In this document: one piece after another, positions 2,058 to 12,313 of the stretch
How positions within the stretch are numbered: position 1 is the first letter of the stretch
How the letters are laid out: every line of letters begins with the position of its first letter
Assembly: GCA_036405175.1 (NCBI GenBank)
Contig: DASWYC010000002.1
Location: 1-55,891, forward strand
Direction: 5' to 3'
DNA length: 55,891 nt
From: Minisyncoccota bacterium
GTDB taxonomy: Bacteria > Patescibacteriota > Minisyncoccia > Phycocordibacterales > UBA1006
Notes under the pieces: model-generated
What the model was told of the DNA's origin: nothing
Databases searched by the model: none
Seen by the model: the letters and a program-made list of their open reading frames with translations, nothing else
Position numbers and translations under genes: made by a program

Positions 2058-2287
2058 AATTTTGATTCAGAACAATCCGGGTTTTAATTGCCTCAATTTC
2101 ACTCAGGGATAAAAGTTTTAAGATTTTAGTAATTATTTCAGCTAAACAACTACCTTATAATAAAAATAGCTTGACATTTTCTTATAAATTTTGATAAGTT
2201 TACTTATTGTCATTAATTCTGCACACCATATACAAACATGGTTTAAGTATCTTTAATAACAATTATAGCTTAATAAACTTCTACAAG

Positions 2288-4168
2288 ATGAAATTTTATA
2301 TAAAAAAAATTGGAAAAATTGCGCTTTTTAGTATTTTATTTTATATATCCTACCCATCCAAAATATTTCCTCAATCCCCGCCAGATATTTTTGATTTAGG
2401 CGTAAACTTCGGCCTTTCCGAGGGGTTTTCTTCTAAAAGCTTAGAGTCTGGATTCGTAAGATTAAGTATAAATCGAGCTCAACATCATTTCAAATCCGCA
2501 CAATTCTTCTCAGAGGCTGATATAAATTTTAAATTTCTATTAAAACCTGAGAATCTAACATTTGTGAATATCGAAAAAACAAGAATAGAGATTGAGCAAA
2601 AACTCAATAAATCACCAAAATATCTTCAATTATTTGACTTAGGAGTAAACCTTGGACAATACGAAGCATTTGCTCACATTCTAAGAACGAAAGGATTAAG
2701 TGAAAATGATATTAACTATCTAAATAAAACTGTTACAAATAAGGCTATTTCTCATGCAAAGAATTACGGTGACTTTAAAAATTTAAATGAACTTTTTGGC
2801 ATTCTTAATACCGATAATGTCAGAAATAAGGTAGATGAGATAGCATTAATGAAGGATAATTTAGAAAGAAAATCATTAGCTCTTAGATTATCTCTTAAGG
2901 AACAATTAAATAAAAAAACCGGCTTTAGAGCTGGTGTATGTAAAATAAATCTTAGATGCGATAAAGGTGAAGGACTGGTTGGATATGAACACCCTGACTC
3001 TATAAAGAGATATGCTTTGCATAATTCTGGTGACTTATCTGTCACAGCGTTAGTTGTTGAGAATAATAATACAAAAGTAGCAATTGTAAGCATTGATGCG
3101 TTATTAATCTATGACAAAAATACACAAAGAATTAAGGCAAAAGTAGGTAATCTAATAGGTTTAAGAAATATAATTATTATTGCTTCCCACACTCATTCTG
3201 GCCCAGAATTTTCTGCAGATGATAATAATCTTACAATTCCTCAATTAGTTAGGGAAGAGCAGATAGTTTCCGCAATCGTAATAGCAGCAGGAAGTTTAAA
3301 AGAAGCTGAAATCGGTGTAGGATGGGGAAATATAAATCAAGGATATAGCCGAGTTGAAAGATTTAAGAATAGTACATCAAAAACTAAATATGTACAGATT
3401 TGCGGAAATAATATTTATAGTAATTTAATAAAGAATGCATATTTAAAACAACATCCTTTGGATTTAATTGATAATTCGATAGGAATTATAAAAATTCAAG
3501 ATAGATTTAATAAAAGCTCCATAGCTTCTTTGATAAATTACGCAATGCACCCTGTCGTATTTAGTAAAAAAAATAAAGTTCTTTCAGCAGATTATGTTGG
3601 TATATTAAGAAAATCTATAGAAAAAAGTACTAATGCTCCATGTCTCTTTTTGCAAGGAGCTGCTGGTGATATTGTACCGTGGTGTTCAACTAAAAAATAT
3701 TCTGAGGCAAAACCTGCAGCACGAGAACTTGGGGTAAGTATCTCTAAGGAAGTACTAAAGGTATCGAATAAGATAAGCACATTTTACAATAATCCTATGG
3801 TCACATTTAATTCAACATTGATTCCAATTAAACATTACGATGGGTCTGACCGTATGCCAGATGTTGGAAATATTGCAGAGATAAATACTTTGTCATTTGG
3901 TAAAGACATAGCTTTGTCTACATTTCCTGGTGAAATGTTTGTAGAGCATGGTTTAAACATAAAAAAGAAAAGTGAATTTAAAAATACATTTGTAATTGGA
4001 TATACGAACCATGCAATTGGGTATATCCCTACAAAAAAATACTTTAATACTGGCGGTTATGGAACTAGGCCAACTGAATGTTATACAGCAATAGGGACAG
4101 GAGAAACCCTTGTTGAAACAGCTTTATATATGTTAAATAAGCAGAAAAATATCCAAAATAATTTTTAA
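2288..4168 (+). CDS. neutral/alkaline ceramidase-like hydrolase, secreted
   Basis: ORF 2207..4168. The internal ATG at 2288 gives MKFYIKKIGKIALFSILFYIS, a signal-like start. IIIASHTHSGPEF and FPGEMFVEHG..IGYTNHAIGYIPT match the conserved neutral ceramidase N-terminal-domain motifs. Confidence 0.55.
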   Translation: MKFYIKKIGKIALFSILFYISYPSKIFPQSPPDIFDLGVNFGLSEGFSSKSLESGFVRLSINRAQHHFKSAQFFSEADINFKFLLKPENLTFVNIEKTRIEIEQKLNKSPKYLQLFDLGVNLGQYEAFAHILRTKGLSENDINYLNKTVTNKAISHAKNYGDFKNLNELFGILNTDNVRNKVDEIALMKDNLERKSLALRLSLKEQLNKKTGFRAGVCKINLRCDKGEGLVGYEHPDSIKRYALHNSGDLSVTALVVENNNTKVAIVSIDALLIYDKNTQRIKAKVGNLIGLRNIIIIASHTHSGPEFSADDNNLTIPQLVREEQIVSAIVIAAGSLKEAEIGVGWGNINQGYSRVERFKNSTSKTKYVQICGNNIYSNLIKNAYLKQHPLDLIDNSIGIIKIQDRFNKSSIASLINYAMHPVVFSKKNKVLSADYVGILRKSIEKSTNAPCLFLQGAAGDIVPWCSTKKYSEAKPAARELGVSISKEVLKVSNKISTFYNNPMVTFNSTLIPIKHYDGSDRMPDVGNIAEINTLSFGKDIALSTFPGEMFVEHGLNIKKKSEFKNTFVIGYTNHAIGYIPTKKYFNTGGYGTRPTECYTAIGTGETLVETALYMLNKQKNIQNNF

Positions 4169-4314: not shown

Positions 4315-4467
4315 TCATAAACGAATTTTATTAGTAGTCAGTGGATTAATAGGAGAAATTAATTTGTTTTTTCTGCTAATATCAACCTCCTCACTTAAAT
4401 CTGGAATGATAAACATATCTTTATTCTCATCTATCCAAGTTCGAATGGCGTCAAAGGTGCTCCACAT
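4315..4467 (-). CDS. small ORF (50 aa) MWSTFDAIRTWIDENKDMFIIPDL.., the longest and only ATG-initiated, uninterrupted version of the repeated gene start
   Basis: ATG at 4467 lies inside direct-repeat copy 1 and overlaps the recombinase stop. The same N-terminus recurs at 12888 and 13815. Confidence 0.35.
   Translation of the reverse strand: MWSTFDAIRTWIDENKDMFIIPDLSEEVDISRKNKLISPINPLTTNKIRL
4333..4466 (-). repeat. direct repeat copy 1 (72-bp core 4395-4466; extended homology to copy 2 from about 4333)
   Basis: The core ..atctttattctcatctatccaagttcgaatggcgtcaaaggtgctccaca differs at 3 positions from copies 2 and 3. Confidence 0.85.
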
Positions 4468-6025
4468 CAAGAGGGTTTGCAGTAGCAAACTCTTCAAATA
4501 ACCTTATGGCACTTGGTATTTCAGTGGTTCGATAACCCTGATTTATCTCATAAGGTATTTTTTGGTCAAAAACAAAATAAAAGAGTTGTTGCTTTTCAAG
4601 AGTACTCGAATTTTCCCATGCAATATATGGGGTTTTTAAAAATGTCTTCGCTTTTGTAAGGGCGGTTCGATAAGGAACATCCAGGTCTACTTTCTGCACA
4701 CTTTCTTCCTTAATCTTTTTCAATTCTTTAACGCTCTCTTCTATTTGTTGCTCATACGCACCTCTAACTTCATCAGAGATTGTTTTAAATGCAATATCAG
4801 TAAGACCTCGTATCTTCTCCTCCAATCTCTCTTTCTCTACTTCTTTGTTAGCATGTTGTTTTTTAATATTGGAAGATTCTTCACCCCAAACACGGTCAAA
4901 AACAGTTAGTAATAGTTTGTCGACTTCATCCTTTAAAATATTCTTCTTAAGAACGGTAGCAAACCCGTCCTCAATATCTTTTTTCTTTATTGATTTTCTA
5001 TAGCAGACACAACTAGTGTTTTGGCAAAAATAATAAGCATAGTGCCCCTTACGTCCCTTTGACCATGCGGCGGTCAAATGCATATTGCACGAGCCGCAGA
5101 CTGTAATGCCGCGCATGGGAAAATCATCAGAGATATCGACTCTGATTTGTTTACCAATTTCAGATTTTCCAAGACGTTTCTGTATAAGTTGGAATGTGTT
5201 TGAAGAAATAATACCTTCATGTTTACCTGGACGCCTCTCAACTTCCCAAGGAAGATACTCAACGTCACCGACATAAAAAGGGTCTTTTAGAATTGCGGCA
5301 AACTTATCAATATAACGAGCAGGTTTTTGTTTTTTCCAAAAACCATGTTCTACCAAAAAAGCACAGGCGTCGACTTTGCGAACAAAGATACCAGTTGCAA
5401 AACCTTCTAACGCTTCTTTTAGAACAATACCCTGAATAGGGTCTGGAATTGCATATTTGCCATGCATAGGGCTTTTTACTATGAGATAGCCCTTCTTACC
5501 TCCAAATGGCCAATAACCGGCTTCCAGACGTGCTCTTTGCTTCTGTATAACCTGTCTACTATTTTGATGTCTCTCGAGTTCAGATTGAGCGGCCATAATA
5601 ATTTCAGCAAATTTACCCTCGGGACTTTCATCAAAATTATAGTTAAGGCATCTCAACAACACATTTCGTGCCTTAAAAGCGGCACGTAGTTTTAAATGGA
5701 ACTCTACATCTCGAGCAAAGCGTTTTAAGTCATCAAATACAACAACAAATTCTTTGTGAGGATGAGCGTCAATATAAGCAATAAGTTCACGCATTGCAGG
5801 ACGTCTCATAAAATCTCCCCCTCCTGTAAAACTGTCTTGAAATGTTTTCTTATGTGGAACACCAATTACGTTTAGGTCAGAAATACAACGACCCTCCTGG
5901 CTCTGTAATCCAGACCCTTCCATTTCTTGTCTTTTGCTAGAAACACGAGCATATACTAGGCCTTCTCGGTTTTCATAGATACTACTCGTTAAATTTATTT
6001 TTTTATGACTTATGTCATTTATCAT
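4451..6025 (-). CDS. large serine recombinase (integrase)
   Basis: The N-terminal resolvase motif is LVYARVSSKRQ (catalytic Ser) with RFARD. It also has a recombinase domain, the zinc ribbon CGSCNMHL..YAYYFCQNTSCVC and a C-terminal coiled coil. Length is 524 aa. Confidence 0.9.
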   Translation of the reverse strand: MINDISHKKINLTSSIYENREGLVYARVSSKRQEMEGSGLQSQEGRCISDLNVIGVPHKKTFQDSFTGGGDFMRRPAMRELIAYIDAHPHKEFVVVFDDLKRFARDVEFHLKLRAAFKARNVLLRCLNYNFDESPEGKFAEIIMAAQSELERHQNSRQVIQKQRARLEAGYWPFGGKKGYLIVKSPMHGKYAIPDPIQGIVLKEALEGFATGIFVRKVDACAFLVEHGFWKKQKPARYIDKFAAILKDPFYVGDVEYLPWEVERRPGKHEGIISSNTFQLIQKRLGKSEIGKQIRVDISDDFPMRGITVCGSCNMHLTAAWSKGRKGHYAYYFCQNTSCVCYRKSIKKKDIEDGFATVLKKNILKDEVDKLLLTVFDRVWGEESSNIKKQHANKEVEKERLEEKIRGLTDIAFKTISDEVRGAYEQQIEESVKELKKIKEESVQKVDLDVPYRTALTKAKTFLKTPYIAWENSSTLEKQQLFYFVFDQKIPYEINQGYRTTEIPSAIRLFEEFATANPLDVEHL

Positions 6026-6188
6026 ATTCTCGTAATTCCGTTTTAATCATATTTCGACAGAATGCTTCAAGATACTCAATACGCTTTATGATTAGTTCTT
6101 TCGGACTAGAATAATCATTTAAAATCTTTCTGTACTCATCTACAGAAACTACAGGTTCTTTCCTTTTTTGCTCGACCAATGGGACCAT
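6015..6188 (-). CDS. 57-aa ORF overlapping the recombinase start (candidate accessory or directionality factor)
   Basis: Hand translation gives MVPLVEQKRKEPVVSVDEYRKILNDYSSPKELIIKRIEYLEAFCRNMIKTELREYDK. Its TGA lies inside ATGATAAATGA, the recombinase start, giving an 11-nt overlap. It is below the 60-aa ORF-track cutoff. Confidence 0.3.
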   Translation of the reverse strand: MVPLVEQKRKEPVVSVDEYRKILNDYSSPKELIIKRIEYLEAFCRNMIKTELREYDK

Positions 6189-6333: not shown

Positions 6334-6978
6334 TCACTTAAGGTTTACGTTGGTCACTCGATAGCCAGAAACATTGTCACTTTCAAACAATACGCTTCTA
6401 GGCAGTTCCCATTTCTTAACGACGATATTTCTGATTTCGTCCACAACCTTGCGAACTCTCGGGACCGGCATATCCAGTTTTTCCGAAATCTCTTTTGTGG
6501 CAACATACTCCTTTTCTTTTGCCAGAAAATAAAGTAGTTGGTAACGGTCACTATCCTTTTCAAGTTGATGCTTTTTATCCACGCCCTCGGGATAAAAGAA
6601 GCCATCGCTATCAAGAATGAAATTGCGAGCACTCATCTCTCGTTCAAGTTTCCTCGCAATCTCATTTCTGTATTCCTTAAACTTCGAATTGTCAGCAACG
6701 TAGAACCAAACCATTACTTCGTGCACAGTTCCGTCCGTAACAGTTGTAATGCCAGAAGGACTTTGGCGAAACTCAATCTTTATATTTTCTTTACTTTCTT
6801 CTCTGATTTGGTCAAAAGAAAACTGTACGAGTTCGCTGTTCTGCAAGAGAGCGTGGAAGTTTGAGAGTTGCCCAGAGCCAAGTGTAAACGCTTCAACATC
6901 GGGGTTTTGCTCAATTTGTTCCTTAAGAAAATCTAAAATCTTCTTAATCCGTTCTAAGGGTTTGTGGGACGCATTCAT
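6334..6978 (-). CDS. DNA-binding protein with C-terminal OmpR/PhoB-type winged helix
   Basis: The C-terminus DRYQLLYFLAKEKEYVATKEISEKLDMPVPRVRKVVDEIRNIV..SGYRV follows the trans_reg_C pattern. The N-terminal 140 aa are unrecognised. Confidence 0.5.
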   Translation of the reverse strand: MNASHKPLERIKKILDFLKEQIEQNPDVEAFTLGSGQLSNFHALLQNSELVQFSFDQIREESKENIKIEFRQSPSGITTVTDGTVHEVMVWFYVADNSKFKEYRNEIARKLEREMSARNFILDSDGFFYPEGVDKKHQLEKDSDRYQLLYFLAKEKEYVATKEISEKLDMPVPRVRKVVDEIRNIVVKKWELPRSVLFESDNVSGYRVTNVNLK

Positions 6979-7002: not shown

Positions 7003-7275
7003 CTACACCTTAAGTTTGGCTTTGGCGGCGTATATGGCGTCCTTAAACGCCTCCTTGTTGTGCCGTATGACTGGGTAGCACAACCTCTCTCCGCTAGTCG
7101 TAGTGACCCATACATTCGATGAGTAATAACCACCGACCTCAACAGAAGCGACCTTTTCTATCGGTACTGATTTCTCACCTTCGAAGAAGGATTTTTTGTA
7201 AATGATTCTGTCTGGAAAAACTGCAATCCTCATTCCAAGAATCTTGAAGTGGCGGTCAAATAATGGCTCGCTCAT
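7003..7275 (-). CDS. small PH-like (bPH-type) protein, 90 aa
   Basis: The pattern ..IAVFPDRIIYKK....SVPIEKVASVEVGG...VWVTTTSGE resembles bacterial PH-domain proteins. It is the first gene after the structured leader. Confidence 0.4.
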   Translation of the reverse strand: MSEPLFDRHFKILGMRIAVFPDRIIYKKSFFEGEKSVPIEKVASVEVGGYYSSNVWVTTTSGERLCYPVIRHNKEAFKDAIYAAKAKLKV

Positions 7276-7328
7276 ATCGTTTTATTTCTTTGATAAAACG
7301 GTCCGATACGACCTTCCCTTAAATATGC

Positions 7329-7478
7329 AAAAAGGGACACCCGGAGCCGGCGTCCCACAGGCTTGAATGCACAAGGCACCAATTGTGGCGGTCGGGTGCC
7401 CCTTTCAGCCCGCAATTGGGGCTTCGAAAAAGAAGCACAAGACCTTGTACATTGAAAATAAACCTATGGGACGCCCGC
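7329..7478 (-). promoter_or_regulatory. GC-rich structured RNA leader with mutually exclusive long-range P1 helix and intrinsic terminator
   Basis: On the minus strand, P1 pairs 7478-7463 with 7361-7346 (14 Watson-Crick pairs, 1 GU and 1 mismatch over 16 positions). P2 pairs 7453-7443 with 7376-7366 (11 bp including 1 GU). The terminator is GGGACGCC-loop-GGGUGUCCC (7356-7334) followed by UUUUU (7333-7329). The terminator 5-prime arm is part of the P1 3-prime strand. One position in each helix (two in total) is GU on the minus strand but A-C on the plus strand. Confidence 0.45.
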
Positions 7479-7517
7479 TAATTATAACAGATTTTCTTTA
7501 AGTAGACCCACACCCCT

Positions 7518-7590
7518 AAATTGGCATTTGAGAAGGCAATTTGCCTTAAAATAAGGGTTTTCCTATTAGGTAAATGCCAATTGCCAATTT
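7518..7590. promoter_or_regulatory. array of TTGGCA/TGCCAA dyads at the 3-prime end of the protease gene
   Basis: aaattggcattt (7518-7529) is the reverse complement of aaatgccaattt within 7572-7590, which also holds tandem gccaatt gccaatt. A central near-palindrome aaggcaatttgcctt sits at 7533-7547. Confidence 0.4.
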
Positions 7591-9859
7591 ATATTCCTGA
7601 TACGACTTCAACAGGAACGGATACATGGGTTTCAACCTCAATCATATTCTGAATCTCTTCGTGCAAATCTACACCCTCGACTTCTTTTATGTCTTCGATA
7701 GTTAGAATTACAGAGTATTTTTGCTTGTAGTCAGCAGGGACCATCAACTCATCTTTGTTTTCGCAGATAATTTTCAATTCCCAGAAACGACCTGTGTGTT
7801 CTTTGGTGTTTTTATCAATAGGCGGATAGTGCTGAACATTAGATTTTGTATGTGCACCACCGTAAGTATCTTTGGTGTTTCTACCTGCAATATTGGCATT
7901 ATCACAACGAACCAATTGGGCTGAAATAATGAGAGGATTATAAATCCTGTGATTTTTTGTATTTACAACAGGGTTATAAACTAGCGTCTTTCTTATTCTT
8001 AATCTCTTATGAGAATCACCTGCAATTGAAGCAGGTATAGGAAACCTCACAGTCTTTTGTTTGCAATCTTTTTCTCCACCAACAACTATCTCGTCTTCAA
8101 TAATTATTGTTGAACTATGGTTTGTTGAGTGCAGAGTTCTTTCTAATTGAGGTATCCCAAAACCAATCATTCGTTCTCTAATCTTCTTGCTAGCAATGCC
8201 TTGTCCGACATCCCTATTCGCAAAGTGTATTATTAAACCCTTGAGTGAATTTGTAGTTAAGTCTGGATATTGATTATGCAAAACCGATAAGTCATGTGCT
8301 ACCAGAGGTGCGGCAAAACTAGTACCACCCATTGAGGTCAAAGTATCATTGTCCTGATGAGCCATAAGTGGCCCGTTGTCTTCACAGGTGAAATCTGTTT
8401 TGTAGTTAGAATCATAATTAACAAGGTCTGGCTTTATGAAAGGAAATTTATCTAGATTGCCTCTCGTGTGAGCAACGGGGCTATTTATTTTTGCCATCGA
8501 ATCAGCAGTTTCAGCAAAAGCAATTGAGCCAACAGAAATATTGTTAATGCTATCTGCAGGAGGTAATATTCGAGCAAATTTTTCAGTGAAGTAATGCGGA
8601 TAGCCCTTTTGTAAACATTTTGTTACCAAATCCCTAGGCCAATTTTTGAATAAGTTGCCCGCAGATACAACAAACAAGCAATTATATTTATTGGCCAAGT
8701 CGTCGAGTAGAATTGTTAACTTATCGACTCCCTTAACTCTCGTGTAAGCAAGATGATAAGTGTTAATCGAAAGATTTATAATTAACACTTTGTATATCAA
8801 AGAATACTTTTTAACCGCATCTTCAATAATTGACTCGAGATTAAGAAAATTATTTTGACTCACCTTAATCGCAATAACTCTGTTGTCTTGCTGTAGAGTG
8901 CCGTTTGCAACTAAATTTCGTCCATTTATGACCAAACTAGCAACAGCAGTTCCGTGTCCCGGTTCAGAACCATCGTTATTAAGAACATCATCGAGAGCAC
9001 CTTTCAATGCAAAATGATTTTGATTTACGTCAGTATCAAAAACGATTGCAGGAGTTAGGGTAGAAGGTGGATTTATAACGCTGATATTCTGGGATTGCTT
9101 TTTAAAAGAAGACAACTCGACAATATAACTTGGACTCTTTTCTATCTTGGTTATTCCTTCAAGTTCATTTACGGTTTCTTCAATCTCATTAAAATTTGCG
9201 TGTACGCGACAAAAATGTAAGGCGTCTCTGTTTATCTTGGAAACAAATCGTTCGCCATACTTTTCAGAAACAATAGTAAGTTTTCGAGCCACATCTTCTG
9301 TTGTGCCCACAAAAGAAATATCAACAAAATGTTCAGTGTCACTAGAACTTCTCATTTCTCCCAATAGTTCTGGTTCAATGATTTCTTCTAGTTCGAGAGG
9401 TTTTATCTCTCGTATGTAATCAAAGTTTGTTTTCCCTTTATCTTTGTCCGATTCTTTGTAAGTAACAATATCTCGTTGTAGACGCTCAAATTGGGAATGT
9501 GTTTGCCCGTCCAGTTTTTTATTGCTTATTCTTCCGTAAACAATCTCGTTTTCTTTTCTATCTTGCTTTACTTTATAAACTTCAATACCGTACTTTTTAA
9601 TAAAGTCCGGTTTACGTGAACCAATAAAAGTAATTTTAAATTCGTTATTACCTTTATCATCAGTCACCAATAATTGTCCTTGTCTGTCTTCATAGAATTT
9701 TTTTATCCGGTTAACATTTCGTACGAGTAACGTCTTATGTCTTTCACGGTTAAAAGTCGGCTTGGGTTGTATATTTCTCTTGGGGCCGGGCGTATATTTA
9801 CCTTCTCGGGAAATTAGTTGTCCTGGCAAATTAAGATGTTTGTAGAGTTTTTTAGGCAT
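7589..9859 (-). CDS. S8 subtilisin-family serine peptidase with unrecognised N- and C-terminal regions (IetS-like)
   Basis: Catalytic-triad motifs are VFDTDVN (Asp), GHGTAVASL (His) and GGTSFAAPLVAH (Ser). The start lies 3 nt after the stop of the upstream ATPase gene. Length is 756 aa. Confidence 0.8.
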   Translation of the reverse strand: MPKKLYKHLNLPGQLISREGKYTPGPKRNIQPKPTFNRERHKTLLVRNVNRIKKFYEDRQGQLLVTDDKGNNEFKITFIGSRKPDFIKKYGIEVYKVKQDRKENEIVYGRISNKKLDGQTHSQFERLQRDIVTYKESDKDKGKTNFDYIREIKPLELEEIIEPELLGEMRSSSDTEHFVDISFVGTTEDVARKLTIVSEKYGERFVSKINRDALHFCRVHANFNEIEETVNELEGITKIEKSPSYIVELSSFKKQSQNISVINPPSTLTPAIVFDTDVNQNHFALKGALDDVLNNDGSEPGHGTAVASLVINGRNLVANGTLQQDNRVIAIKVSQNNFLNLESIIEDAVKKYSLIYKVLIINLSINTYHLAYTRVKGVDKLTILLDDLANKYNCLFVVSAGNLFKNWPRDLVTKCLQKGYPHYFTEKFARILPPADSINNISVGSIAFAETADSMAKINSPVAHTRGNLDKFPFIKPDLVNYDSNYKTDFTCEDNGPLMAHQDNDTLTSMGGTSFAAPLVAHDLSVLHNQYPDLTTNSLKGLIIHFANRDVGQGIASKKIRERMIGFGIPQLERTLHSTNHSSTIIIEDEIVVGGEKDCKQKTVRFPIPASIAGDSHKRLRIRKTLVYNPVVNTKNHRIYNPLIISAQLVRCDNANIAGRNTKDTYGGAHTKSNVQHYPPIDKNTKEHTGRFWELKIICENKDELMVPADYKQKYSVILTIEDIKEVEGVDLHEEIQNMIEVETHVSVPVEVVSGI

Positions 9860-9862
9860 AAA

Positions 9863-10993
9863 TTATTTCTTCCTCGGGGAATACTTTGGATAAGTATTGC
9901 GATGAATACCAAGAACAGACGCAATAACAACCTTCGGATAACCCATACTCTCAACCTCCTTTAGGAGTTTCGTAAGCAGTTTTTCATTTTTGCTTTTGAT
10001 ATTTTTAAGGCTTGATAGATAGCCATCAAACAAAAGAATCTCAAGAAAATCCTTATAAGTAATTTCTTTCCTGTCACCGAGAATCATTTCCATTTTTGCT
10101 TTCTCAATTACACCTTTGATTTCATCAACCGTGTCTAAGTTCAGCAGATTAAATACGCTGAAAATAAAGTCCCACTCTTTCTTGGAAAGTTTCGTTTCAA
10201 TACTCTTATCGTGCTCAATGAGGTAACCCAAGAAATCTTTTTTGTCAGAGTCACTTAAAGCACCGACCTCTATTTTAAATGGGAAACGTCTAAGTATTGC
10301 AGAGTCAATTGTATCTATGAGATTTGTGGCAACGATAACGATTTTATTGCTTGCAGAAAAATCCAAGGTTTGAATAATGGAGTTTACAATTCTTTTTAGT
10401 TCTCCAACATCGTTGTTGTCGGCTCTTGTTTTTGCAAAAGCATCAAACTCGTCAATAAAGATAACTTCTCGTCCTGGTGTGTGGAAAATATCGGCTATGT
10501 TTTTCATTGTCTCTCCAAGACGAGAAGACATGACATCAGTCACCTTTACGTATCGTGTAGGCAATTTCAGTTGCTCTGCAATATAAAAGCCAAGTGTTGT
10601 CTTTCCTGTACCAGGAGGACCGTAGAGTAGGATTCGATTTAGTTTTTGGTCGTCCTGTAATTTTTCTATCCTTCTGTAATATTCAAGAATCCTATCAAGT
10701 CTTTTTTTGAGAGACGATGGAAGCCAAATCTTTTTTACATCAACGTGGTAAGACTGCTTCATCGCACTCGCACTTTGAACGTGTCGAGTGCCTATAGGGG
10801 ACCCTTCAATCTCGGCCAGGAGTTTCATCAAGGAGTTATAGACCTCATGGCGATTATTATTTATTTCACTAACAGCAATCTTTTGAAGTAGGTCGAAAAG
10901 TTCCTGCCTTTCACCAATCAAACCAAGTCGGGCTATTTCAATTAAATTTTTGTTTGATTTAGAAAGCATATAGTCGAGAGTACATCTGCACAT
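9863..10993 (-). CDS. AAA+ ATPase (IetA-like) with possible C-terminal Fis-type HTH
   Basis: Walker A is GPPGTGKTT and Walker B is VIFIDEFD, with the AAA-lid pattern ILRRFPFKIEV. The C-terminus IASVLGIHRNTYPKY looks like a short HTH. The start could be ATG 10993 or ATG 10969. Confidence 0.8.
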   Translation of the reverse strand: MCRCTLDYMLSKSNKNLIEIARLGLIGERQELFDLLQKIAVSEINNNRHEVYNSLMKLLAEIEGSPIGTRHVQSASAMKQSYHVDVKKIWLPSSLKKRLDRILEYYRRIEKLQDDQKLNRILLYGPPGTGKTTLGFYIAEQLKLPTRYVKVTDVMSSRLGETMKNIADIFHTPGREVIFIDEFDAFAKTRADNNDVGELKRIVNSIIQTLDFSASNKIVIVATNLIDTIDSAILRRFPFKIEVGALSDSDKKDFLGYLIEHDKSIETKLSKKEWDFIFSVFNLLNLDTVDEIKGVIEKAKMEMILGDRKEITYKDFLEILLFDGYLSSLKNIKSKNEKLLTKLLKEVESMGYPKVVIASVLGIHRNTYPKYSPRKK

Positions 10994-11022
10994 TTTTATT
11001 ATACACGATTAAAAATGTGCAG
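10986..11022. promoter_or_regulatory. 13-bp perfect inverted repeat overlapping the ATPase promoter and start
   Basis: ctgcacattttta (10986-10998) pairs with taaaaatgtgcag (11010-11022). A minus-strand TATAAT (11004-10999) lies in the 11-bp spacer, and ATG 10993 lies in the left arm. Confidence 0.45.
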
Positions 11023-11392
11023 ACTAGTCCTTATGTTGTGAATATCCCAGAGTTTCTATAAGTTCAATACCCCCATGGTGGAGTACCTGAATTGCTACTT
11101 TATGGAGAAACAAGGGTTTCTTGTAGGTTTTTACTAGTTTGATGAAAATACCAAAAGCGAGAAAGATAACTTTTTAGGCGGTTCGATAAAACCCGACATC
11201 TGTCCACCAAAGTTGTTATTTCTAACAAATTTCAGATACCTATCATTTCAGTCTTTTAAGGAAATAAATTACTATAAGTCGATAATTAAGGAAGTTTGTT
11301 AAACATCTTAATTTTGATAAAATCTTTCTAAGGATATAATTGTTGTGAAAAAGTAGGGTTATCTTTTAACTCAATTAAAAATCCTTATTTAT

Positions 11393-12313
11393 ATGCCTAC
11401 GTTATTAGAATATTACAACAACGATTTTAAAGACCTCAGTATTGACTCAGATATTTCAATGGATTTGAGTAAATCAGATGAAAATGGGCATATTGTCCCA
11501 ATAGGACAGTTGATAATTAAAATGCGAGTTAAAAGTGAAATGAATAGCTCAAGTCTAATTTTTACTTTTTATATTCCTGAAACTACCTTAACGACTAGGA
11601 TGATACTCTCTCTACTTGATAATCTTGATGCATATAAAAAACAAATAAAAGAGGTTGAAGTTATTGGCGGTTTTTTGAATGATATTGATGTTGGAGTTCA
11701 TAATAGTACATTTTCAAGTCGCGTGTTTTTCTATGTAGAAACCCCACCATTAAAAGAAGAGATTTCACAGCTTGAAGTTTACTGTAAAGATAAAAATATT
11801 TATTTAACTATTAGAAGTTTAGATTATGTCAAAACACGTATGAGAAATGAGACACCTTTAGCATTTATCTCGCATGATTCTAGAAATAAGGAATTAATAG
11901 CAAGACCGTTAGCAAATGGCTTAAATTCAAGATTATGTACGGTTTGGTATGATGAATACTCTTTAAAGGTTGGAATGAGTTTAAGAGAATCGATTGAAGA
12001 TGGAATAAAAAAGGCAAAAAAGTGTATTTTGGTTCTCACCAAAGAGTTCCTTGAAAATCCAGGCTGGACCAGAAAAGAATTCAATTCAATTTTCACCAGG
12101 GAGATGATATTTAACGAAAGAGTTGTAATTCCCATATGGTTCAATGTAAAAAAAGAGGAGGTATATGAATATTCACCATCACTGGCTGATACTGTTGCCT
12201 TAATTTGGCCAAATCCTAGTAATCTGACAGATGATGAATACAAAGTAGAAGTAGAGAAGCTTATAAGTAAAATCCATACAGCCGTTACTGCTGAAAATAG
12301 TAAAGATTCTTAG
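11393..12313 (+). CDS. TIR-domain protein with unrecognised 150-aa N-terminal domain
   Basis: The C-terminal half LAFISHDSRNKELIARPLANGL..VWYDEYSLKVGMSLRESIEDGIKKAKKCILVLTKEFLENPGWTRKEFNSI matches the TIR_2 pattern, including the W-x3-E glutamate position. Confidence 0.8.
   Translation: MPTLLEYYNNDFKDLSIDSDISMDLSKSDENGHIVPIGQLIIKMRVKSEMNSSSLIFTFYIPETTLTTRMILSLLDNLDAYKKQIKEVEVIGGFLNDIDVGVHNSTFSSRVFFYVETPPLKEEISQLEVYCKDKNIYLTIRSLDYVKTRMRNETPLAFISHDSRNKELIARPLANGLNSRLCTVWYDEYSLKVGMSLRESIEDGIKKAKKCILVLTKEFLENPGWTRKEFNSIFTREMIFNERVVIPIWFNVKKEEVYEYSPSLADTVALIWPNPSNLTDDEYKVEVEKLISKIHTAVTAENSKDS

Follow-up and report, generated by a model that had tools for sequence, protein, structure and literature searches.

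A structured RNA of ≈150 nt is encoded on the minus strand (nt 7474–7329) of contig DASWYC010000002.1 of a Minisyncoccota bacterium (assembly GCA_036405175.1), whose positions 1 to 55,891 were analysed as a whole and are hereafter called the window (55.9 kb). The RNA lies in the 313-nt gap between the gene of the protease IetS and an open reading frame (ORF) of 90 aa, and it is the 5′ leader of an operon made of this small ORF, a winged-helix regulator, (a mini ORF) and a large serine recombinase, the whole being part of a small integrative island with variable defence cargo. The minus-strand structured RNA is genuine. On the best reading that comparison with known systems affords, it represents a new RNA family that would function like the known P4 CI and P1 c4 immunity RNAs, that is, as a leader-derived, self-masked antisense and attenuator RNA, and to this reading we give a probability of about 0.5.

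Fold, strand and promoter of the leader RNA

All the elements that a preliminary description of this region had placed on the minus strand, namely a TATAAT box (nt 7486–7481), two nested helices, a GCUUC hairpin and a local hairpin followed by a U-run, were found at their assigned positions. The outer helix (nt 7478–7463 with 7361–7346) is paired at 15 of 16 positions, with one G.G mismatch and one U.G wobble, and gains three further pairs that bring it to nt 7460/7364; the second helix (nt 7453–7443 with 7376–7366) has 11 bp, including one G.U. The GC enrichment noticed at that time was likewise present in the composition of the window (0.56–0.58 across the RNA versus ≈0.37–0.40 in the flanks).

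The fold of nt 7276–7588 reached −111.2 kcal/mol on the minus strand (z = −4.5 versus shuffles), and the plus-strand fold was nearly equal (z = −4.7 versus shuffles); since both strands fold significantly, a single-sequence fold does not decide between them. A covariance model was built from nine sequences, and the final alignment (A5) comprised 11 distinct homologues, across which scores were 124–196 bits in the sense orientation and 12–29 bits in the antisense one. Because the sense scores far exceed the antisense ones, and the G.U pairs of the RNA helices exist on the minus strand only, the minus strand is the RNA strand, as originally proposed. The parts of the RNA and its immediate surroundings, all on the minus strand, are the following:

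nt 7481–7489, minus strand: extended −10 promoter element TGTTATAAT (TATAAT at 7486–7481 with a preceding TG)
nt 7460–7474, minus strand: P1 5′ strand, segment A, GCGUCCCAUAGGUUU; 13 pairs, 98.6% paired
nt 7451–7459, minus strand: J1/2, 5′ side of an asymmetric internal loop, AUUUUCAAU (alignments A3 and A5)
nt 7443–7450, minus strand: P2 5′ strand, GUACAAGG, pairing with nt 7376–7369; 8 pairs, 97.7% paired
nt 7421–7436, minus strand: P3 hairpin, GCUUC-UUUUUC-GAAGC; its compensatory pair is in locus L028 (UCUC/GAGG)
nt 7413–7419, minus strand: P4 5′ strand, CCAAUUG, pairing with nt 7385–7379; 7 pairs, 100% paired
nt 7393–7406, minus strand: pseudoknot 5′ strand, segment B, GAAAGGGGCACCCG, in the P4 apical loop; pairs with the 3′ tail
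nt 7379–7385, minus strand: P4 3′ strand, CAAUUGG (covariation of helix 4)
nt 7369–7376, minus strand: P2 3′ strand, CCUUGUGC (covariation of helix 2)
nt 7350–7364, minus strand: P1 3′ strand, segment C, AAGCCUGUGGGACGC (covariation, and complement of the winged-helix gene start)
nt 7330–7343, minus strand: pseudoknot 3′ strand, segment D, CGGGUGUCCCUUUU; pairs with segment B
nt 7276–7328, minus strand: 53-nt spacer that separates the U-run from the first ORF, conserved in length, with a small hairpin (GGUC-GUAUCG-GACC)
nt 6963–6972, minus strand: segment A′, codons 3–6 of the winged-helix gene (GCG UCC CAC A), a copy of the P1 5′ strand

On alignment A5, which was fitted to the nested model and hence leans toward that structure, the five-helix structure (P1–P4 plus the pseudoknot) is paired in 98.1% of the cells. 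Fifteen pairs are changed on both sides (three in P1, five in P2, one in P3, three in P4 and three in the pseudoknot), a number that none of 500 shuffles reached, and in controls slid by 1–3 columns only 38–50% of the cells were paired, with 0–1 double-changed pairs. P1, P2 and P4 were also recovered by RNAalifold on an independent MAFFT alignment. The long helices first drawn from the window have thereby received the covariation support that had been called for.

The helices are not equally constant. Segment A is extendable to nt 7478 in the window only, and J1/2 varies among homologues in both sequence and length (8–10 nt). P3 is optional, locus L020 being without the hairpin and retaining UGCUUCUU as a single strand, and misalignment of the rows of the window and of L006, which are shifted, accounts in part for its lower percentage of pairing. 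The double changes of P4 were seen in L020, where the helix reads UCCGUUG/CAACGGA. Within the main class of homologues the RNA is >90% identical, versus 43–64% for the accompanying winged-helix protein, and the main class and L020 share few unpaired nucleotides. A remnant of coding sequence, a further possibility raised for this region, is ruled out by insertions and deletions of 1 and 2 nt within the core of the homologues and by the covariation.

The promoter box is as constant as the fold. The motif TGnTA(T/C)A(A/G)T was found in 11 of 11 loci, with a spacing of 6 nt to the conserved GCG that opens P1, and since the extended −10 element always lies 6 nt ahead of this GCG, the transcript is predicted from the sequence to start, probably, at or beside the first base of P1. 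A consensus scan of the window promoter region returned no match for a −35 element.

Further upstream of the RNA promoter, repeat units of ≈75–85 bp were observed, with one copy in the window (nt 7517–7591, arms at 7519–7529 and 7572–7582) and up to three, with a period of ≈103 bp, in relatives (L020, 4276–4562; L021, 5219–5501; L024, 948–1222; L027, 7240–7500). Each unit has inverted arms of 9–13 nt, 37–57 nt apart, and a conserved core, AAGAAAnCCTTATTTTGCAA; the arms differ yet stay complementary (GGAGTTAG/CTAACTCC, GGCATTAG/CTAATGCC and ACGGTTGG/CTAACCGT). In the L018–L027 lineages the last arm ends 17–18 nt ahead of P1, at the −35 position. These units could be operators, iterons or further RNA hairpins.

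The pseudoknot and the copy of P1 in the winged-helix gene

The 3′ tail of the RNA had been seen earlier as the arm of a local terminator, in competition with the outer helix. A hairpin of this kind is present in the window (GGGACGCC/GGUGUCCC, nt 7356–7334, followed by UUUUU at 7333–7329), it was also found by a terminator scan, and as a GC-rich helix directly followed by a U-tract it has the form of an intrinsic terminator. Its overlap with the 3′ strand of P1 exists as well, the core of segment C (UGUGGGACGC, nt 7359–7350) being also the 5′ arm of the hairpin. What the hairpin itself lacks is covariation support: it has no compensatory pair, loses pairs exactly at the varying columns and decays in some homologues (window, −16.0 kcal/mol; L018 type, −10.7; L020, −6.8); moreover, the P1 conformer is better by 7–17.5 kcal/mol than the one with the hairpin. 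The U-run, CCCUUUUUG, does not vary among homologues.

The conserved partner of the tail is instead the P4 loop, in a pseudoknot that had previously gone unnoticed. Segments B and D form 14 bp in the window and 13–16 bp among the loci, segment D taking in most of the U-run (nt 7333–7329) and overlapping the 3′ arm of the local hairpin (nt 7356–7334). Segment B is the best partner of the tail within the whole RNA, with a duplex of −23.9 to −27.5 kcal/mol, a strength matched by 0–1 of 1000 shuffled tails. The pseudoknot is 99.4% paired and kept in every lineage: a GG insertion in the loop is matched by a UC insertion in the tail, a C-G pair becomes U-A in the L018 type, G.U becomes A-U and C-G becomes U.G in L028, and in L020 the helix is fully rewritten as GGGGCGGCUGU/ACGGCCGUCCC. 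The conserved helix abutting the U-tract is thus GAAAGGGGCACCCG/CGGGUGUCCCUUUU, which has the order of a terminator (A-tract, GC-rich stem, U-tract) and takes its 5′ arm from a distant loop; we infer that it would be able to act as one.

Only ≈5–6 nt link the end of P1 to the 3′ strand of the pseudoknot. P1 (13–17 bp) may lie alongside P2 and P4 (≈15–17 bp) by fold-back, or P1 and the pseudoknot may instead be alternative states. A four-segment attenuator in which A:B would form together with C:D was also considered; it is possible by eye in the main class, is not kept in L020 and was discarded.

The second conserved feature connects the RNA with a gene of its own operon. The first 8–12 nt of segment A repeat codons 3–6 of the winged-helix gene, and the core of segment C is the complement of this gene start. 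When complements of the RNA were screened for at the downstream gene starts and then along ≈3 kb of the operon (perfect matches of at least 8 nt), segment C versus codons 3–6 was the only positionally conserved one, with a contiguous C/A′ complementarity of 8–12 nt in 11 of 11 loci. On the minus strand of the window, A and A′ are the sole occurrences of the 8-mer GCGTCCCA, and C is the one place where its reverse complement is present. In L020 the three segments have changed together (U has become A in both A and A′, and A has become U in C), as follows:

Window: segment A, GCGUCCCAUAGG; segment C, CCUGUGGGACGC; segment A′, GCGUCCCACA (nt 6972–6963)
L020: segment A, GCGACCC; segment C, GGGUCGC; segment A′, GCG ACC CAC

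The winged-helix gene opens with ATG (nnn) GCG TCC CAC/T in all 12 loci where its start was read, counting the variant GCG ACC CAC of L020 and L025; in L025 the RNA region lies off the contig. Codon usage at this site is frozen. Of 84 columns with a conserved residue, five have a single codon in all 12 genes (the mean fraction of the majority codon being 0.65), and the adjacent Ala-GCG and Ser-UCC, four- and six-fold degenerate, belong to these five, which indicates that selection acts on the nucleotides at codons 3–6. The energies of the pairings involved, −24 to −29 kcal/mol for P1, −20.6 to −25.1 for C:A′ and −24 to −27.5 for B:D, are those of a balanced competition. A second pairing between RNA and mRNA, of UGCUUCUU with AAGAAGCA at +79 of the recombinase gene, was found only in L020 and L021, where it encodes Q-E-A, is absent from the other recombinase clade and was treated as due to chance.

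Proposed antisense control and other explanations

Base pairing at the first codons of an mRNA can keep the 30S subunit from binding and block translation initiation, small RNAs can repress by pairing within the first five codons, and codons 3–6 fall within that stretch. Segment C may be regarded as an antisense element with two equally good partners, either A, with formation of P1, or A′ in the winged-helix mRNA. With P1 closed, C would be hidden and the regulator start free, while with P1 open C would pair with A′ and block initiation, acting in trans if supplied by short, terminated RNAs or in cis if transcription has continued into the operon. Termination at the U-run, ahead of the operon, would be favoured by C when free or by the B:D helix beside the U-tract, and the outcome would set the amount of regulator and recombinase made. 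Candidates for opening P1 would be segment C of other terminated molecules, the winged-helix protein and competition by the pseudoknot.

No Rfam class accounts for the RNA, in agreement with the lack of a recognised class noted at the outset: cmscan of the window at the gathering threshold returned tRNA-Asn only, a permissive scan of nt 7200–7650 gave chance-level matches only (the best being BjrC1505, with 18.3 bits versus a gathering score of 50), and the scan of seven related loci gave tRNA and tmRNA only. Nor did a full-text literature search find a description of it. The nearest systems in layout are the immunity RNAs of P4 and P1. The P4 CI RNA derives from the leader, and its pairing with two targets, seqA on the upstream side and seqC on the downstream side, leads to premature termination, and IsrK is a terminated leader RNA acting in trans on its read-through isoform (PMC4825925). 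Like P4 CI and IsrK of Gifsy-1 (Rfam C4), the present RNA is the leader of the operon that it would control, in a mobile element, and like P4 CI it has an antisense segment (C, nt 7359–7350) with an upstream and a downstream copy of the target (A, nt 7474–7463; A′, nt 6972–6963), in one transcription unit of the element, an arrangement found in 11 of 11 loci; premature termination, part of the control in P4, is proposed here. It differs in several respects: it has no sequence or structure match to the Rfam models of P4 CI/C4, the upstream copy pairs with the antisense within the molecule and closes a four-helix pseudoknotted RNA, the downstream copy is within the coding region (codons 3–6) and not in a leader, the host element is a serine-recombinase island of Patescibacteria and not a phage or satellite, and RNase P processing is not indicated.

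The c4 RNA shares a transcript with its targets, which lie downstream of it, and pairs where translation of icd is initiated, its antisense segments being presented in loops and the ribosome-binding site being the target. In P1 it forms one operon with icd and ant and is required for full repression of ant (PMC8198154). The present RNA resembles c4 of the P1/P7 immI operon (c4-icd-ant) in being an antisense RNA encoded in the operon of its target genes, whereas a long helix sequesters its antisense segment, the site targeted falls just within the ORF and the fold is different, the Rfam C4 model giving no match. Leaders of the rpoS type, in turn, contain an internal antisense element that is countered by anti-antisense RNAs such as DsrA and RprA. 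Here too the antisense would cover the translation-initiation region (+7 to +18) and a mimic would compete for it, but a single small RNA contains both mimic A and antisense C, and the target lies ≈490 nt further downstream, with another ORF in between.

Several points weigh against antisense control as just proposed. The 11 sequences amount to about five lineages, and L020 contributes most of the double changes and the sole three-way change; in L006 the complementarity to A′ is limited to 8 nt. The 5′ end, the 3′ end and the termination of the RNA are predictions. Both coexistence and mutual exclusion of P1 and the pseudoknot fit the linker of ≈5–6 nt. Segment C is buried in a helix of 13–17 bp with no obvious adjoining toehold, so that pairing with A′ requires some event that opens P1. 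The analogy with P4 CI and c4 is one of layout, given that the Rfam C4 model does not match. Lastly, the identity of A and A′ could reflect a shared protein-binding site, with the C:A′ complementarity as a by-product.

This last objection is the core of the alternative to which we give most weight, although it seems unlikely: a protein-responsive attenuator, in which a protein, most simply the winged-helix protein itself, would recognise GCGUCCCAC in RNA at both A and A′. Binding at A would prevent P1, leaving C:D or B:D to form beside the U-tract and stop transcription, and binding at A′ would repress the protein's own translation. Such a scheme would fit A and A′ being near-identical at every locus and changed together in L020, the gene containing A′ encoding a nucleic-acid-binding protein that always accompanies the RNA, and the local hairpin or the pseudoknot standing directly ahead of the U-run when A is unavailable. 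The N-terminal domain of the protein (≈120 aa) has the order beta-alpha-alpha-beta-beta-alpha in a structure model, and in PDB fold searches with the models of the protein and of this domain several KH domains are among the top matches. However, all structural matches have E > 0.006, KH domains and RepE appearing solely among these non-significant ones, no GXXG motif is seen by eye, the protein matches no Pfam family and the Pfam search gave no RNA-binding family. The winged helix points to DNA rather than RNA binding, and a sequence-specific RNA-binding protein is an extra assumption in comparison with base pairing that is directly visible.

Antisense control may also take a stronger form, which we regard as rather doubtful. 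P1 and the loop–tail helix would be exclusive, a view taken because the linker has only ≈5–6 nt for a helix of 13–16 bp, the pseudoknot would be an intrinsic terminator, and the leader would work as an immunity switch of a new architecture, bistable and self-reinforcing. In terminated RNAs with an open P1, C would be exposed and would capture A of nascent leaders, causing more termination, and also silence A′; exposed C would thus lock the recombinase operon off until the RNA is titrated.

A metabolite or ion riboswitch, the reading initially suggested for the region, would make P1–P4 and the pseudoknot an aptamer whose ligand decides between read-through and termination. The RNA is indeed a structured leader element on the strand of the downstream genes, 52–54 nt before the first ORF (nine loci), with covarying helices, a 3′-tail pseudoknot, an invariant U-tract and loops highly conserved within the main class. 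Like preQ1-I, fluoride and ZTP riboswitches it has a 3′ tail that pairs, at a U-tract, with the loop of an upstream hairpin, and pairings that exclude one another around an element resembling a terminator. In metabolite riboswitches the switching helices are short and marginal, whereas those found here have 13–17 bp and ≈−25 kcal/mol each, far longer and more stable than in the three classes named, and the local terminator lacks covariation support. None of the Rfam riboswitch classes matches, few unpaired nucleotides are common to the main class and L020, and the genes downstream are a regulator and a recombinase, with no metabolic gene and no hint of a ligand. The additional copy A′ in the coding region is left unexplained, and being a three-way-covarying repeat it favours antisense control over ligand sensing. 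A riboswitch is on the whole very unlikely; the attenuator that had been envisaged along with it was right in spirit, the conserved feature being other than terminator competition.

Equally little credence can be given to A, C and A′ as DNA operators. The winged-helix protein would bind GCGTCCCACAGT at three sites, one at the transcription start, a second in inverted orientation 115 bp further downstream and a third where its own gene begins, for repression or looping, and the A/C pairing in RNA would be incidental. A motif of 10–12 bp present three times near the promoter and the regulator gene, its concerted change in L020 and the winged helix of the partner protein agree with this, but A and C are inside a multi-helix RNA in which P2, P4 and the pseudoknot, which cannot be operators, covary too; P1 runs 3–5 pairs past the motif with compensatory changes, its U.G wobbles would be A.C mismatches in a DNA inverted repeat, and the covariance-model scores are strongly strand-specific.

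We likewise hold it highly improbable that the RNA is a stand-alone stable cofactor of recombination, structural or guide, constitutively terminated and with J1/2 as specificity element, since, for all its own strong-looking promoter box, its compact, nuclease-resistant design (5′ end in P1, 3′ end in the pseudoknot), its variable J1/2 on a nearly invariant scaffold and its constant position beside a serine recombinase with relatives that use tRNA-Glu or tmRNA genes as integration sites, nearly the same RNA goes with two recombinase clades and different integration targets, downstream complementarity is conserved only for A′, and the variable loop is short, AU-rich and of little information. 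Large serine recombinases are not known to need an RNA. The IS110 bridge RNAs, which go with a DEDD recombinase and have loops complementary to target and donor DNA, offer no parallel, the recombinase here being of the large serine type and the conserved complementarity within the operon being that of A′.

The island family and the meaning of the RNA

The genes of the operon and of the cargo in the window are the following:

nt 11393–12313: TIR-domain protein, divergent, beyond IetA (PADLOC models PDC-S66 and ThsB)
nt 9863–10993, minus strand: IetA, AAA ATPase (PADLOC, E = 5.5e-60)
nt 7589–9859, minus strand: IetS, S8 protease (PADLOC, E = 1.9e-58)
nt 7003–7275, minus strand: 90-aa ORF, first ORF after the RNA
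nt 6334–6978, minus strand: 214-aa protein with a C-terminal winged helix (HTH_11 in relatives), always accompanying the RNA
nt 6015–6188, minus strand: 57-aa ORF overlapping the recombinase start (ORF list)
nt 4451–6025, minus strand: large serine recombinase, last gene of the operon (Pfam Resolvase, Recombinase and Zn_ribbon_recom)

The order of the module is the same in all related loci, i.e. a variable cargo, a non-coding gap of ≈310–700 nt, a small ORF, the winged-helix gene, (an ORF of ≈60 aa) and the serine recombinase, and the RNA is present at every locus that reaches far enough upstream. The position as leader of the small ORF, the winged-helix gene and the recombinase, foreseen in the preliminary description, is confirmed by this gene order. 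The cargo may be IetAS with TIR, a KAP NTPase with a deaminase and DUF5680, a UvrD helicase, DUF4238 or two DNA methylases with HNH, and it is co-directional with the module or divergent from it. Because the winged-helix gene and the recombinase are its constant companions while the cargo varies, the RNA belongs to this backbone and not to the protease; a role as part of the IetAS defence is ruled out, the upstream cargo differing in every lineage.

In the window, the cargo (nt 7589–12313) is the defence pair IetA/IetS with the TIR protein, and the rest has the content of an ordinary chromosome (genes for ribonucleotide reductase, BipA, type IV pili and tRNA-Asn). Among 5.8 billion proteins the winged-helix protein has only 14 clusters and the 90-aa protein only two others. 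Three unrelated kinds of first ORF occur, with 90 aa (window, L006, L007 and L028), 84 aa and hydrophobic, or 147 aa (L020). The spacer ahead of it is 52–54 nt long in nine loci although the ORF differs in kind, and in the window and its relatives it always has a small GC-rich hairpin and a purine-rich stretch (AAGGG, AAAGGGG or AGGAG), which sits far from the start codon. ORFs of 60–81 aa stand at the position of the 57-aa ORF in L020, L022, L023, L024 and L025, and this ORF is a possible candidate for a directionality factor. Two distinct clades of large serine recombinase share nearly the same RNA and winged-helix module, with N-termini LVYARVSSKRQE (window) and YAIIDCRVSDPQQLKGGSL (L018, L020–L022, L024), which suggests that the recombinase is exchanged as a module.

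Locus L018 comes from a Candidatus Vogelbacteria genome (Parcubacteria group of Patescibacteria). The islands of relatives were observed at the 3′ end of an opposite-strand tRNA-Glu gene (L018, 8651–8725; L020, 7916–7990) or tmRNA gene (L027, 10522–10905; L028, 4196–4568), with the last 40–64 nt of the recombinase gene overlapping that 3′ end. In L020 a second, partial tRNA-like repeat follows a little further on. The island of the window is not beside a tRNA gene and follows a ceramidase-like gene (nt 2207–4168).

Searches beyond these loci added no homologue. A covariance-model scan found no other copy of the RNA in the window, and blastn of the RNA against phage and plasmid collections gave no match. 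A DNA pattern scan returned nine matches in viral contigs, at chance level within GC-rich coding sequence, a single match in metagenome contigs (L017), inside a 691-aa ORF and ascribed to chance, and none in genome contigs, with a pattern too strict for sequences of the L018 type. In a GC-rich viral contig, L008, nt 1449–1484 read GCGGGCUGAAAGGGGCGGCACCCGACCGCC, i.e. the core of the P4 loop save for a 2-nt insertion. Here 27 of 29 core bases are common, but the covariance model matches positions 63–97 only (19.7 bits), the flanking helices are lacking and by eye the stretch is inside a terminator-like hairpin of the opposite strand, so that it was rejected as a homologue and is probably a chance resemblance; a second pattern returned L029 from the viral contigs, which has no covariance-model match. 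A locus search guided by the winged-helix alignment gave one marginal match in genome contigs and none in viral contigs.

Patescibacteria are reduced, mostly uncultured bacteria of the Candidate Phyla Radiation, and if antisense control is the correct explanation, the RNA described here would be a regulatory RNA class in this group. No other part is as conserved in this family of small islands, which have a serine recombinase and shuttle defence genes (IetAS, TIR, KAP NTPase with deaminase, UvrD and restriction-modification genes), and understanding the RNA would account for the way in which they govern their regulator and recombinase and, through these, excision and stability. The underlying logic would be compact, with a self-masked antisense, a decoy copy at the 5′ end, a target in the first codons and a pseudoknot at the U-tract, and the natural U/A variants of the main class and of the L020 class would provide a ready-made orthogonality pair.

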